Part shown: positions 56,976 to 64,000 of the stretch, in pieces
How positions within the stretch are numbered: the first letter of the stretch is position 1
Layout: every line of letters starts with the position of its first letter
NCBI GenBank assembly: GCA_951406725.2
Contig: OX597820.1
Location: forward strand, 63,116,001-63,180,000
DNA: 64,000 nt
Direction of reading: 5' to 3'
Source of the DNA: Octopus vulgaris
Lineage: Eukaryota
Notes under the pieces: model-generated
Databases searched by the model: none
Told to the model about the DNA's origin: nothing
The model's input: the letters and a program-made list of their open reading frames with translations, nothing else
Translations under genes and position numbers: made by a program

Positions 56976-57319
56976 GGAGGGAGACGAAAGCTGTAAATTA
57001 CTTTGCGCATTCAACCGGTTACGTAAGCATACATCACCACTGTTTCATCGGCGAAGGACTTTTAGTTGACGGAATGACAATTGAGGTAACCTTAAAGAGA
57101 TGGCTATACACAATTTGATTCATTATAGTGATAAATACCTGAACGTCATGGATTTCACTACCTGGTTCCCTGTGCTTTGTACCTAGTGACTAGTCGAAAG
57201 GACATGGTATAAAACTCTACGATTATGTCCCTCACTCTCAGTGATTTTGCTGAGTCCCCTGTTATCGGGGTGTTCAGACGATGGTCAGCACATATGCAAG
57301 TTTACCTATAACTATTCTG

Positions 57320-57516
57320 ATGTTACGTTCCACAACGTCTCGCGATGGGTGAAAATCCGCGAAGTAGAAACTGAACTGTACGTTATATATATATATATGT
57401 ATTTATAATCTGCATATATTAATTTTACTATAATTTGCAAAACAATACCACGGAGGAATCGATGGAAGCTTAAGTAGTAAACCGTGATAGGAGAACCTAG
57501 ATATGGCGAGGCACTA

Positions 57517-57519
<3 letters not shown>
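57320..57519 (-). mobile_element. Tigger/pogo-like MITE, diverged inverted copy
   Basis: cgcgatgggtgaaaatccgcgaagtagaaac and ccacggaggaatcgatggaagctt are reverse complements of parts of 58246-58680. Confidence 0.75.
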
Positions 57520-57554
<35 letters not shown>

Positions 57555-57618
57555 TTCTAATATAAGGATACGTTTTCGAAAAAAACTTTATCAATGACCA
57601 GCTTATTAAAATTACTTT

Positions 57619-57675
<57 letters not shown>

Positions 57676-57769
57676 GTGTAATAAATAAAATATATGCATA
57701 CATACAAACATATATGTACGTACCGACATCTACATGTATATATACATGCATATATAAATATATATACGT

Positions 57770-58231
57770 ACAGGACACCACAAGAAGACGTAAAAATCAA
57801 CAGAAACGAAAACGGAAAAGCCATTTTGTTACAACAGAAGGACAGAGACGTGGAACAAGACGAAACGAAAACGGGAAAATAATTATGTACAGCAGAAAAA
57901 CGAAGTACAGGACATGCTGCACAAGGAAAAATCCCCTTCATCAGCTGTCGCTAGCAGACATAGCGTGTTTCGAAGGCAAGACAGAACACGTCTGGTCATG
58001 CGACGCCTTCGTACGAGAGAATTAAAGTAAAATAGCCTCGTAGAGGGGTAAAACGAGCAAGAAAAAATGTAACACAAAAAGGGACGTAACAAAGAACTGC
58101 ACAAAAAAATACAAGAAGAAAATAATACAAAATTAAAGATACATGTACAAGAAAATACAAAACGAGAATTAAATTACAATACGAGAAATCAAAATAAACA
58201 GGAGAACAAACGAAAAAGACGAACGAAGGCC
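57770..58231 (-). repeat. Purine-skewed interspersed element between (TA)n tracts, with permuted hammerhead-like boxes
   Basis: Sharp (TA)n boundaries. Minus strand contains ccttc-GAAAC-acgctat-GTC-tgctagcgacag-CTGATGA-agggg. Confidence 0.45.
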
Positions 58232-58359
58232 TATATATATATATACAGTAATCCCTCGACATATCTTGGTTCACCTATCGCGGTTAACTATTCAAGCTTC
58301 CGTCGATTCCTCCGTGGTGTTGTTTTGCAAATTATAATAAAATTATAATAAAATTAATA

Positions 58360-58566
58360 AGATGCAGCACGGATTTTTATCAGTGAACAGGTCGCGGCCT
58401 TATAGCGACGAAAATATTTTGACAAATTAAACTTAAATATTGTAGTGAATCGAACGGCTTTTGTGTATTTCTTAAAAGGCTTACAAACATCTTCCACGCT
58501 GCAATTGTTTTCGTTCCTGCACACCATCTCAGATCAAATGACTTGCTATGCAAGTACATCACCGTA
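58360..58566 (+). mobile_element. 207-bp non-coding retroelement-like insert with variant hammerhead, 13-bp TSD
   Basis: TSD aataaaattaata at 58347-58359 and 58567-58579. Homologous copies at 62775-62967(-) and 62968-63090(+). Confidence 0.85.
58376..58426 (+). ncRNA. Minimal type I hammerhead-like motif with G3:C8 core (GUGAACA)
   Basis: TTTaTCA-GTGAACA-g-GTCGC-ggccttata-GCGAC-GAA-AATATT-T-TGAcAAA. Confidence 0.7.
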
Positions 58567-58744
58567 AATAAAATTAATATATATATATATATAATATACA
58601 GTACTGTTTCTACTTCGCGGATTTTCACCCATCGCGTGATGTTTTGGAACATAACATCCGAAATCGTCGAGGGATTAGTGTATATTGCTATGCAGTTAGG
58701 TTTATGTCGGGTCATAGAGTAAGCAATGGTTTCGCATCAATCTA

Positions 58745-58802
<58 letters not shown>

Positions 58803-58907
58803 TACAAACATATTTATATGAATATGGGTGTGTGTGTGTGGGGGGTTGAAAGCGTGTGTATGAGTATATGTATATGTGTGTGTGTGCACGGGCGCGTAGG
58901 TAGATAT

Positions 58908-58933
58908 ATAAGTAGATAGACAGACAGACAGAC

Positions 58934-59015
<82 letters not shown>

Positions 59016-59077
59016 GTAGATAGATAGATAGATAGATGGATAGATAGAGAGATAGATAGATAGATAGAAAGATAGAG

Positions 59078-59138
<61 letters not shown>
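58908..59138. repeat. (GATA)n tetranucleotide microsatellite, one of very many simple repeats in the window
   Basis: Direct reading. Confidence 0.95.
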
Positions 59139-59519
59139 TACTAGTCGGTACACTTTACTTATGCTTATAGAGTAATGAAGAATTTTCGATAATAATTGCC
59201 TGGTATTTCTAGGAGATCGAACGACCCAGAATCATTACATTTGCTGACGCAATTAAATATTCTATCTTTAATTTTCAGTATCGAAGTACAGGAAAGAGTC
59301 AGTGTCCGTTTGATCAATTTGTTAAGAACACTTCTTTGAAGTTGTTCACCACCTTCTATCCTTTTATCGATTTTTACTTGAACTGGTATTTTTATCGATC
59401 AATGCTTGGTAGATTTTCATGATGGCATATTTGTCTTTTTGCTTCTATTTTTAGTGTTTTTGTCTTTTCCATTGACCCCATTTAAATATTCTCTTCAGCA
59501 TTACATCACCTTCTAATAT

Positions 59520-59780
59520 TGGTTGCAAATTTTGGCCCGAGAGCAGTAATTTTGGTACGTATTTCATCGGCCCCGAAAGGATGAAAAGCAAAGTCAACCT
59601 CGAGCTGAAATAAATGTATGTAGGGTTAGTCGATTACATCGCCCCAAGTGATTGCCTGGCACTTATTTTATCGACTACGAAAGGAAGATATACTAAGACG
59701 ATCGCTCGGAATTTGAACTCAGAGCGCAATGCTGGAAAAATGCGTAGAAGCATTTTGTCCGGCGTGCTAACGATTCTATC
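59520..59780 (-). mobile_element. SINE family C, diverged/duplicated fragments
   Basis: ccccgaaaggatgaaaagcaaagtcaacctcg and ggaatttgaactcagag...cggcgtgctaacgattct. Confidence 0.65.
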
Positions 59781-60760
59781 ATAAGAATCCATCCTCTTCT
59801 AGGCAAAAATGCTTGAAATGTTAGGTAAGAGCGATGCGGCACTGTGTGTGTTTATTATATATTTCTTGTGTATTCTCGATTGCTATAGTATTTGTATTTC
59901 TCTCCACATTTTGTGCAACTGAATTGCGTTTCTCAAGGCAGAAATAAAATTATTTTTCACACAGAAACATTTTACTGGAAATGAAATTCTGAATAACCGA
60001 AGTAGTCATAAATATCTCCCACCGTGAGTTACACAAACATTTTTTGTGATAGTTCTGTTTTTTGTTAATATATTTCAACATTTTAAAAATTCGTCTTTAG
60101 CGCTGAGGGTTGTGATTTCCTTTGTTAACAACGTATATAATTTTAGAGTCGATTTATCATAGCTTCCATTTTCAGCATTATTACACAGGCATCGTCATTT
60201 CTCGGATTACACGAAGAAGCTTACCGAAATGCTTACAAGTCAATGCTCTTGTCTCTTCCGATCCTATCATTCACTAATTACGGTGGTTAATCTCTGATTC
60301 TCGATAACAATATATTGAAGTTCTTGATGTATATCGTTTGTATTTATATCTGACACAACTGTACATGTCCGTGCGCCTAAATAAAAAGCAATATTTGCTT
60401 TAATTTCTTCTTAGTGACACGAAATAAGAGATAAATATAGCTCTATGCCTATAGGTTCGTGATCTATGCATGTCTCAATTCCATTGTGCAAGTTCATTTC
60501 TATGATATCTTCAAATGGTAGTTTCTATAGATTATATTCCATCGTGAATAAAATGTTATATATTGCATTGAATAGTTGTTTTAAATTCTTTCATCCTTTC
60601 ATTTGAAATCTAAAGCAATTGGCTACAAAGTTTTCACTTACATTCTATATATTGTTAGATTTTCCATATTATTGAAATGTCCAAAATTCCTAATATCCCA
60701 AAATAAATTTGCATAAGCTGAGGCAACATTTGTCAGCATTCTATTTACACACATATATAA

Positions 60761-60870
<110 letters not shown>

Positions 60871-61404
60871 GTGCGCAAGAATGTATTTCACTTAATTTAT
60901 AAGATATTTACAATATTATGTATTCAATTCCTGAATTCTTATTATTGATTTCTAACATAGCTCCAACATCTCAAAATTAATAGGAAACAGAGTTGATTAG
61001 ATCGACCTCAATAATCAAGTAAGTGTTAGTTCGTAGCCCACGGAAGAATATAAGGTCAAATCTAAATCTTCGGAATTTGAATACTGAATTTAAAGCTGCA
61101 TCACCAAATATCACATGACAATTTGCATCCTCTACCGATTCTTCGAAACTACTACCTCTCCGAACTGAATAGTATGAGCAATTCATCACCTAGAGCGATG
61201 CAATAGCAGACTTGGTAAGGTGGCAGAGAAAATGCTTTCTTTATTGAAATATCTAAGTTTTCAATTCCCTCGCTTTTGCCTATCACAATGTAAGGTTTCT
61301 GATTAAACACTTGCAATATAATGGAGATAAACTTCTATACGTTCTCCCGTGATGAAGTGAATATATGAAGACTACTGAGTGGGCATCGGGAGATTGTAAA
61401 GATA

Positions 61405-61434
<30 letters not shown>

Positions 61435-61437
<3 letters not shown>

Positions 61438-61835
61438 AAAATGGGACAAGAGCGCAAAACATCCAGACAGACGATACAAAGAAAACAAGGACGTGTCATT
61501 TGAAATTTTCTATCTTCAGTCGAGTTCCAGATTATTTTTGTAATTTCGACTGGTAATACACGAGAGAGATCCAATCTGGCCAGCCCCAAGGAAAAACTAA
61601 TCTAAGAGGATTAGGTTCCTTGGAAGAAAGCAACGAATGTATACGAAAACAAGGACGGAAAAAAAACAGAGAAATGTTACTCAAATACAAATTCAGTTAG
61701 CAGGACATAACAACAGTTGTTTTTAGACTAAGGACAAATTAAATTAAGCTGGCGTTTGTGGAACTAAAGCCTTACGGCAGGAACATAGGGTTTAACAGGC
61801 ACCTGGAGGAATATAGATGTTGCACGGATTGTAGT
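61435..61835 (-). repeat. Interspersed non-coding element between (TA)n tracts, possibly PLE-derived
   Basis: Complex sequence with sharp (TA)n boundaries and a composition like the neighbouring HHR elements. Confidence 0.4.
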
Positions 61836-61836
61836 A

Positions 61837-61904
<68 letters not shown>

Positions 61905-61993
61905 GGTAAGATAACAAAAGAAAGAAAGAGACCTCAATATTATGTAAATAGAGGAAATTTATCTATACAATATGTTACATTACTCGGTAGTCA

Positions 61994-62056
61994 AGATAAA
62001 ACTCTGAGTTTCAGATGCCGAAGTGGAAATCCACAACACCATCTCTTCGGTTATCT
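61994..62056 (-). ncRNA. Mirror copy of the hammerhead motif at 62639-62701
   Basis: Exact reverse complement within the palindrome. Confidence 0.7.
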
Positions 62057-62638
62057 GGCTATTTGAAAACGTTATGAAAAAATACCGTTAAAAATGAAGG
62101 GAAATTACTCTGTTATAACTCTGCTTTGCCTGCGTACTTATACATCGCTCGCATTTTTCGTCATAAAAATTATATAAAAATACATAAAAATATATAAAAT
62201 ATATAAAATCTTCTTGGGACATAACACAGAAAGCATGTTCTATCCGTTTTCTTTAGGGGACCAAAAACGTAACAGAAATTTAGTCACATGTGGGCATGAT
62301 CCGAAAAGCTCTGTCCTTGTATTTAGACCTGGCTTATCTGGAAAAGCAGCTTAGACCCTACCACATGTCTAAATACAAGGACAGAGCTTTTCGGATCATG
62401 CCCACATGTGACTAAATTTCTGTTACGTTTTTGGTCCCCTAAAGAAAACGGATAGAACATGCTTTCTGTGTTATGTCCCAAGAAGATTTTATATATTTTA
62501 TATATTTTTATGTATTTTTATATAATTTTTATGACGAAAAATGCGAGCGATGTATAAGTACGCAGGCAAAGCAGAGTTATAACAGAGTAATTTCCCTTCA
62601 TTTTTAACGGTATTTTTTCATAACGTTTTCAAATAGCC

Positions 62639-62701
62639 AGATAACCGAAGAGATGGTGTTGTGGATTTCCACTTCGGCATCTGAAACTCAGAGTTTTATC
62701 T
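62639..62701 (+). ncRNA. Type I hammerhead motif (U4 to C variant)
   Basis: AGATAA-CCGAAGA-GATG...CATC-t-GAA-ACTC-a-GAGT-T-TTATCT: perfect 6-bp stem I, near-palindromic stem III, GUU triplet. Confidence 0.7.
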
Positions 62702-62723
62702 TGACTACCGAGTAATGTAACAT

Positions 62724-62774
<51 letters not shown>

Positions 62775-62777
<3 letters not shown>

Positions 62778-63088
62778 GGAGATATACTTGCATAGCTAGT
62801 AACTTGATCTAAGATCGTGCGCTAGAGCGAAAACAACTGCAGCGTGGAAGGTGTTTTGAAGCCATTTAAGAAACACACAAAACCGTTAGATTCGCTTCAA
62901 CATTTAAATTTAATTTGTAAAACTATTTTCGTCGCTTTGAAACCGCGACCAGGTCACTGACAAAACTGATGCAGCACGAAGTTTTGTCAGTGAACAGGTC
63001 GCGGTCTCAAAGCGACGAAAATTTAAATGTTGAAGTTAATCTAACGGTTTTTGTGTGTTTCTTAAATGGCTTATAAACACCTTCCATG

Positions 63089-63090
<2 letters not shown>
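62775..63090. mobile_element. Head-to-head inverted pair of the 207-bp G3:C8 hammerhead family, flanked by (TA)n
   Basis: 62775-62967 is the reverse complement of 58372-58566; 62968-63090 is a forward copy starting gatgcagcacg and truncated at (TA)n. Confidence 0.88.
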
Positions 63091-63150
<60 letters not shown>

Positions 63151-63156
63151 TATATA

Positions 63157-63870
63157 CAGGGTGCGATGAGAAGTTGTCACTATTTTATATTTTTTATTAC
63201 GCTCACATTGTTTATTTTTTATTTTGTCGACTACAGTGTATAGTAGAGTCCATTGAGAGTCATCTGTGAGAAAAACACCCCCGTTACGTAATTCACCAGC
63301 TAAAGCATCCAGTTAACGCCATGATGTTTGGAGTAATCGCCAGTGATGGCGACGTTATGCCTCCATTCACCTTCCCACACGGCCTCAGAATCAATACGGA
63401 TGCCTGGAGGAGGTAGTGCTGCTCTGCCTAAAGATGGTGGCAACTGGAAGACCCTATGTCTGACAACAGGACTCTGCACCATGCTACGCAAGCAGGAGAA
63501 CCCAGACATGGCCGATAGACAATTTCTGCGACCACATCACCCCTAACGTCTGACAACCTAACTCCCCAGACTGTAACCCCCTTGATTATTATTTGTGGGG
63601 CACAGTTCAGCGAGAAACCAATAAAACTTCTTGTAACACCACAGATGAACTGAAGGCAAGGATTATGGCAGCACTCGCCAACATAAACAAGGTGACCGTC
63701 CAGAAGAGCTGCATAAGATTCCGAAGTTATTTGGAAGCAGTGCGTAAAGCCAATGGCGATTTCATTTACTCTTTAGCATTTTAAGATATTTTTCTATAAT
63801 TTTGGTAAATATATCTGTTAAAATGAGATGTCAGTGTTATTTTCATTTTTACCGTAATTTAGACGAGAGT
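63157..63870 (+). mobile_element. Degenerate Tc1/mariner-superfamily (maT/DD37D-like) transposon fragment
   Basis: ta|cagggtgcg left end. Translation KHP...MMFGVIASDGDVMPPF.FP.GLRIN...QQDSAPC...PNSPDCNPLDYYLWG.V.RETNK...CIRFRSYLEAV..ANGDFI. Confidence 0.88.
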
Positions 63871-63947
63871 TTATATATATATACACAGAGATAGATAGAT
63901 AGAGAGAGAAAGAGAGAGGGAGAGAGAGTGAGAATGATACATTGCAC

Positions 63948-64000
63948 AGTCGGTTACGACGACGACGGTTGCAGTTGATCCGATCAGCGGAATATCCTGC
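63948..64000 (-). mobile_element. SINE family A 3' end (runs off window)
   Basis: gtcggttacgacgacgacggtt.cagttgatccgatca matches 27625-27680. Confidence 0.7.

Follow-up and report, generated by a model that had tools for sequence, protein, structure and literature searches.

A probable slow-cleaving hammerhead motif with a swapped G3:C8 pair in the pseudo-long terminal repeat of an octopus Penelope-like element

Introduction

Can a hammerhead ribozyme in which the usual C3:G8 pair has become G3:C8 be found in nature, and does it still cut? The question is raised by a 64,000-nucleotide stretch of the Octopus vulgaris genome (assembly GCA_951406725.2, contig OX597820.1, positions 63,116,001 to 63,180,000; the window), in which a 207-bp repeat at 58360..58566 holds a hammerhead-like motif with G at position 3 and C at position 8. 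An earlier note, made from the letters of the window, read the motif as a hammerhead core with a compensatory pair, carried by a mobile 207-bp element and possibly linked to a Penelope-like element (PLE). We conclude here that the motif is almost certainly a homologue of the PLE minimal hammerhead in which positions 3 and 8 have been swapped in a compensatory manner, and that this G3:C8 motif, lying in the pseudo-long terminal repeat (pLTR) of a PLE, probably cleaves, slowly, after 58419. Motif numbering follows PMC4209133, the genome searched amounts to 2.8 Gb, and loci named L with a number are fetched genomic copies or related loci.

The motif and the element that carries it

The motif is present at 58376-58426. 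It has U4 G5 A6, A9, G12 A13 A14, the A15.1-U16.1 pair and H17, together with stem I, stem II (G10.1-C11.1), an extra nucleotide after position 9 and a palindromic helix III. Judged by its sequence, it carries every published hallmark of PLE minimal hammerheads, among them all four traits listed by Cervera and de la Peña (PMC4209133), except the literal core CUGANGA, where G3 and C8 stand instead. The triplet ending in U17 had been called suboptimal, but U17 after U16.1 is frequent, and thus ordinary, among the PLE hammerheads of supplementary Fig. S3 in PMC4209133. When a relaxed descriptor (positions 3, 7, 8 and 9 free) was run over both strands of a 5.1-kb unit of the element, the two pLTR copies were the only matches; a fully relaxed descriptor gave 0 to 11 matches, depending on stem length, in 2000 shuffles of a 205-nt natural pLTR copy. 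An Rfam scan of 57500-64000 found no hammerhead, even at E<=10, just as the earlier note had expected of standard searches, whilst its hammerhead reading is upheld by the sole fold in the unit and by the covariation across lineages described below. Minimal hammerheads of other, unrelated families with canonical cores also turn up in the fetched flanks, for example some that combine a CTGATGA or CTGACGA core with a helix III of four bases, ACGT.

The repeat is not the stand-alone element that had been proposed but the pLTR, or 5' leader, and first 30 codons of an autonomous PLE encoding a reverse transcriptase (RT) followed at the C terminus by a GIY-YIG endonuclease, which bears out the suggested PLE link. 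We make this identification because a walk upstream from longer copies, through ~1.3 kb of microsatellite-rich sequence, reaches a GIY-YIG and RT reading frame, and a walk downstream, through the last 90 bases of the repeat, enters the same open reading frame (ORF) without interruption. The layout is pLTR, ORF and pLTR in a unit of 4.26 kb, seen in full at L097, where direct pLTRs at 3220-3424 and 7481-7682, 4,261 bp apart, flank the ORF; at both L097 and L098 the pLTRs are directly repeated around the ORF and overlap its start. Other PLE hallmarks were found, namely the single ORF with RT and C-terminal GIY-YIG, an inverted 5' copy, and a tail of ~58 nt on one end only. Dispersed copies of the repeat are 93-95% identical, a 35-base internal pattern from it has 3,967 exact matches in the genome (control 0), and short copies number in the thousands.

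At L100:3971-7045 the frame is open for 1025 amino acids with RT motifs visible, and the ORF has 73 homologues at E<=1e-30, the closest named one being annotated in Octopus vulgaris. The linker between RT and endonuclease in this ORF has, by eye, a C-x3-C-x2-C motif, and a CX2-5CxxC linker before the endonuclease has been described for Neptune and Nematis and not, in the same account, for Poseidon (PMC8557442). By this linker motif the element may be of the Neptune/Nematis type, the ORF tree holding no named clade references. An annotated Octopus vulgaris F-box/LRR gene model (P0069) also contains about 150 amino acids of the ORF protein (66% identity), through either exonisation or an annotation error.

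These data bear on an alternative in which the motif is a chance look-alike inside a miniature inverted-repeat transposable element (MITE) or other DNA transposon and the pair at 62775-63090 represents terminal inverted repeats. That pair does resemble an inverted repeat, the 58360 copy folds poorly (see below) and Rfam returns no hammerhead. Nevertheless, the repeat is continuous with the RT/GIY-YIG ORF, the arms are unequal with variable junctions, the duplications are long and variable, and homologous families carry textbook cores at the same place, so we regard this explanation as already refuted and extremely improbable.

Positions 3 and 8 across lineages

The G3:C8 pair characterises the family as a whole. 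With positions 3, 7, 8 and 9 left free there are 6,523 matches in the genome (control 1), and a hand tally of the first 100 gave G3:C8 in 93 and C3:G8 in none; in copies anchored outside the motif, G3 and C8 were each present in 57 of 58. The same G3:C8 state is found in an older lineage with copies that have decayed by ~30%. Its 21 matches to the same relaxed pattern read G3 in 16, A3 in 4 and C3 in 1, with C8 in 16, T8 in 4 and G8 in 1, and the sole C3 is coupled with the sole G8 in a copy that belongs to a canonical family. When column majorities of the two lineages are compared, N7 and loop II differ, a stem I pair in columns that the pattern leaves free is G-C in the old lineage and U-A in the young one, and 14 of ~77 downstream columns have changed; the helix III palindrome has four bases in the old lineage and six in the young one. 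Despite these differences, to which others in stem II are added, the old lineage keeps the pairs of stem I, stem II and helix III. Both G3:C8 lineages have U17, and the sister family has U17 or C17.

C3:G8 occurs in this frame in other families of the genome, one pattern for them giving 175 matches, and their downstream sequence can be aligned to that of the G3:C8 pLTR; a tree of this downstream part splits G3:C8 from C3:G8 copies with support 0.97. The sister octopus family, with C3:G8 and C9, has intact ORFs of 1312 amino acids whose RT/endonuclease is 54% identical at the amino acid level, and three of 12 related metagenome loci have a hammerhead after the ORF, with U3:A8 in L372 and L373 and C3:G8 in L377. 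The protein tree joins the G3:C8 family (100/100) to the octopus C3:G8 family (98/94) as its sister, with support of 100/100; its tips carry family labels, also for L315, whose one motif copy reads G at position 8, and for L318 and L325, whose motif copies were not seen, and the tree does not tell whether C:G or U:A is ancestral.

Pairing was counted in 11 aligned representatives, L372 being left out as it was misaligned by MAFFT. Position 3:8 is Watson-Crick in all 11 (CG in five, GC in five, UA in one), and the compensatory pair claimed from the window is thereby borne out across three pair types. Overall, 85% of cells were paired, a level reached by none of 500 shuffles and compared with 24-45% in slid controls, and 11 of 16 pairs showed double changes, although these counts are support and not a probability, the rows being related and hand-picked. 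Between lineages, 3:8 and each of the three helices covary in Watson-Crick fashion.

Several further observations concern these relatives. In the young sister family (L313:1442-5377; L274), which has many intact ORFs of ~1310 amino acids, C replaces the conserved A9, and its hammerhead lies at L274:2152-2201 on the minus strand; the metagenome locus L373 likewise combines C9 with U3:A8. The commonest canonical family (L176, L179-L185 and similar loci) has a few extra bases after position 17 that put the 3' strand of stem I out of register, which may be a longer helix III or a decayed form.

Insertion ends

The ends of 71 copies, anchored inside the repeat and uncertain by a few bases, show how the short copies may have been made. 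The defined 5' end that had been proposed is real, in that 27 of the 71 begin at +1 to +4 (+1 being 58360), and the 3' ends gather at +144 to +153 (27 copies) and +199 to +209 (41 copies). A second fixed 5' end ~330 nt upstream was considered and rejected, as copies extend further. Since short copies run through the predicted cut, the templates for insertion were uncut, and it follows that cleavage does not make the insertion ends. Counted by hand, 34 of the 59 distinct insertion patterns that 70 loci on one chromosome provided have an inverted second arm, and 30 of these join one arm ending at +200 to +207 with another ending at +144 to +153. Foldback of a single complementary DNA (cDNA) fits these pairs less well than two primings, given that the arms pair +207 with +149. 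Together, the inverted pairs and the two 3' ends match what the anole element does in vitro, where both strands are extended and cDNA has two internal starts (PMC11167929).

The 5' end also carries an untemplated G. Amongst copies ending exactly at the AG of +1, 21 of 27 have G at -1, a position that is C or T in long copies, and G makes up 12% of the flanks; two of these copies share one flank, and some of the G may be attributable to the duplication or to the inverted arm. In a second sample, tallied by hand and overlapping the first on chromosome C1, G was present in 33 of 41 non-C copies of one subfamily. This G is likely to be a copied cap, which would place the transcription start at 58360; no published account of a cap-derived G for PLEs was found in the literature.

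It could instead be argued that the fixed 5' end reflects RNA processing at a spliceosomal 3' splice site. Long copies have a branch-point-like CTAAC, a pyrimidine run and an AG directly before the ATG, and the intron of the Drosophila virilis Penelope ends at helix I of its hammerhead (PMC4209133). The short copies, however, retain the AG that splicing would remove, have no exon in common further upstream, and show G at the site of the C or T of long copies; because of this untemplated G we consider a splice product a rather poor prospect. A start site and a 3' splice site may nonetheless lie at the same place, both uses being possible. Acceptor-like sequence precedes +3, with no donor identified in this family, and contigs of four sequencing runs list no splice joint, though the microsatellite repeat was skipped there and longer transcripts may still be spliced. 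The core letters occur in loose ends of three sequencing runs with three organism labels, which shows presence only. In the sister family a perfect donor-like GTAAGT stands ~25 nt upstream of the L274 hammerhead, where the G3:C8 family has its acceptor-like site.

Does the motif still cut?

From its sequence we think it reasonably likely that the G3:C8 motif retains some residual self-cleavage. An alternative is that a PLE-derived motif no longer cuts and that its fold, 3:8 included, is kept as a structural signal, such as a protein-binding site or a translation or promoter element. That insertion templates are uncut is in keeping with this, as are reports that hammerhead mutants had no effect on insertion in vitro and that RNA-seq of the anole element gave no reads with an end at the cut (PMC11167929), the very slow cleavage of published minimal hammerheads (PMC4209133), and a predicted G3-U17 trap. 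However, the 3:8 pair belongs to the active conformation (PMC3884650), and it has stayed Watson-Crick through two changes whilst U4, G5, A6, A9, G12, A13 and A14 were fixed and N7 alone was free, which is what selection for catalysis would predict. Loss of cutting is therefore unlikely in our view, if by no means fanciful.

A number of results weigh against an active hammerhead or its placement in a PLE. In the young family the flanks match the core in conservation, polymorphism being confined to loop II and a few scattered sites, so that the greater conservation of the core which the earlier note had proposed to look for is absent there. Copy-level conservation is uninformative because the copies decay neutrally, and since the young-family core is conserved no more than its flanks, support for the hammerhead comes from the comparison of lineages and not from copies. 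The change to G3:C8 is one event on the tree, and a hammerhead was seen in none of nine of the 12 metagenome relatives; for most of these the flanks were short, but that of L371 on the 3' side ran to ~880 nt. Pfam places GIY-YIG in the ORF just under threshold (E 1.4e-4, 22.5 bits against a cut-off of 22.6) and RVT_1 weakly (E 0.052). None of the 71 copies has a 5' or 3' end at +60 to +62, the predicted cut.

In folding, the 58360 copy, with its stem I mismatch, does not outperform shuffles (z -0.5 to -0.7); three other, intact copies do (z -2.3 to -3.4), with stems I and II formed. In the monomer G3 is predicted to form a wobble pair with U17, which would be the mirror of the C3-G17 trap, and according to one paper, which does not show the data, a G3-C8 variant performs better with G17 than with C17. 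The double-hammerhead form is predicted at -28.8 kcal/mol against ~-30.8 for two monomers, energies that would neither favour nor exclude it. In published tests the engineered C3G/G8C double mutant of a PLE hammerhead had its cleavage restored, and only in part (PMC11167929).

Features of the window

The coordinates are collected in Table 1. A search of the window with the motif pattern gave three matches, against none in 100 shuffles. The earlier note had reported three copies with G3 and C8, but two are damaged arms of one insertion and so are not independent, and the 17-nt deletion in the plus arm removes U16.1 and U17 along with the 3' strand of stem I. The consensus drawn from the three is the majority sequence of the family. 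The suggested movement as a unit, by insertion into a MITE with a 13-bp target-site duplication, is confirmed by the exact duplication and by three empty copies of the host element in which the target site is present once.

The host MITE is presumably of the Tc1/mariner-pogo type, and two more copies without the insertion lie at 57315-57519 (-) and 11163-11373 (+). The window also has, at 61957-62738, 375-bp arms, 99% complementary and 32 nt apart, which may be a young fold-back element or an assembly feature, and, within 9502-12453, 715-bp arms, 99% complementary and 1.5 kb apart. By eye, 63158-63870 resembles what we take to be a Tc1/mariner transposon remnant.

Table 1. Features of the repeat, its motif and its surroundings in the window
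Feature	Position	Strand	Detail
Host element, short terminal inverted repeats, TA flanks (MITE)	58246..58680	.	from sequence
Left target-site duplication, 13 bp	58347..58359	.	exact match to right copy
Inferred capped transcription start, +1; also A of the AG ending a 3'-splice-site-like stretch in long copies	58360	+	5' ends cluster; G at -1 in 21/27
pLTR / 5' leader and first 30 codons, short-copy insertion	58360..58566	+	93-95% identical copies; direct repeat around ORF in L097
Predicted minimal type I hammerhead fold	58376..58426	+	stem I 58376-58382 with 58420-58426; A-C mismatch at 58379
Core positions 3-9	58383..58389	+	G3 58383, C8 58388
Extra nucleotide between 9 and 10.1, then stem II with variable loop	58390..58409	+	G 58390; stem II 58391-58395/58405-58409, G10.1-C11.1
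G12 A13 A14 (58410-58412), six-base palindromic helix III (58413-58418), U17 (58419)	58410..58419	+	predicted cut after 58419
Start of RT/GIY-YIG ORF	58476..58566	+	dead here: altered start codon, one stop; start intact in L098:2970
Right target-site duplication, 13 bp	58567..58579	.	exact match to left copy
Long arm (ends at +207) of inverted two-arm insertion	62775..62967	-	A9U, changes in helix III and stem I
Short arm of the same insertion, +2 to ~+142	62968..63090	+	G3 at 62990; 17-nt deletion after GAA

Discussion

We propose that the element would be transcribed from a capped start at +1 and that its ORF protein may nick AT-rich DNA and begin cDNA synthesis at +149 or +207 within its own RNA. 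The thousands of short copies could then come from copying of the 5' leader as far as the cap, and the inverted pairs from two cDNAs with priming on opposite strands, one from each of the two starts. The ribozyme would act elsewhere, in processing a full read-through RNA that holds two hammerheads, in the 5' and 3' pLTRs. Cleavage after 58419 would be slow and would occur as a dimer or with the help of protein; the two hammerheads of the full transcript may pair through the palindromic helix III, as has been proposed for PLE motifs (PMC4209133), and the predicted G3-U17 wobble would further damp the monomer.

A broader outline can be offered only tentatively, as something short of an even prospect: an active natural G3:C8 hammerhead that has long sustained a successful retroelement lineage, 3:8 in three Watson-Crick forms within one PLE clade, a GUGANCA class invisible to current descriptors, and, as an in vivo record of how PLEs work, cap-terminated leader cDNAs that recall strong-stop DNA and come together in pairs from two fixed internal sites of priming. 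The motif would represent a natural counterpart of the classic C3G/G8C rescue experiment and indicates the change of descriptor needed to find more such ribozymes. Retention of 3:8 through two transversions argues that PLE hammerheads are selected for the active fold and are not passengers, an open question in the field, and the genome offers thousands of records for testing how PLE cDNA is primed and terminated.

No natural G3:C8 hammerhead was found in the literature, leaving aside the large survey of PLE variants by Lunse 2017 and one supplement to the 2014 paper (PMC4209133); in accessible accounts G3:C8 appears solely as the engineered, partly active double mutant. Natural U3:A8 hammerheads are published, by Perreault 2011 (PMC3088659) and for Schistosoma mansoni PLEs (PMC4209133), and the G3:C8 motif resembles them as a natural double change that keeps 3:8 Watson-Crick. 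The two differ in kind, since U3:A8 takes two transitions and keeps the pyrimidine-purine order, whereas G3:C8 takes two transversions from either known state and reverses it.

With animal non-LTR retrozymes (PMC7229834; bioRxiv 10.64898/2026.07.22.740005) the repeat shares the form of short, non-coding hammerhead repeats tied to PLE pLTRs, but here the copies lie scattered as single or inverted two-arm insertions and correspond to the 5' end of an autonomous element. Head-to-tail arrays were absent at the 70 loci on one chromosome, arrays elsewhere not having been searched for.

The PLE minimal hammerheads of PMC4209133 share with the motif the pLTR location, the extra nucleotide between 9 and 10.1, G10.1-C11.1, the palindromic helix III, a U-rich 5' flank and a common U17; the four-base helix III and the U17 of the old lineage recur in the Crassostrea row. 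The accessible rows of Fig. S3 in that paper start with CUGA or UUGA and none with GUGA, in contrast to the G3:C8 core. In its mode of insertion the element resembles PAc / Poseidon_Ac of Anolis (Frangieh 2024, PMC11167929), with which it shares a pLTR over the ORF start, two internal RT starts that define the tail, AT-rich targets, extension of both strands and a hammerhead not used for the insertion ends. It differs in a tail of ~58 nt versus 30-40, an ORF start ~56 nt after the predicted cut and the C-x3-C-x2-C linker, and in that the G3:C8 state engineered into the anole ribozyme is wild type in the octopus element.
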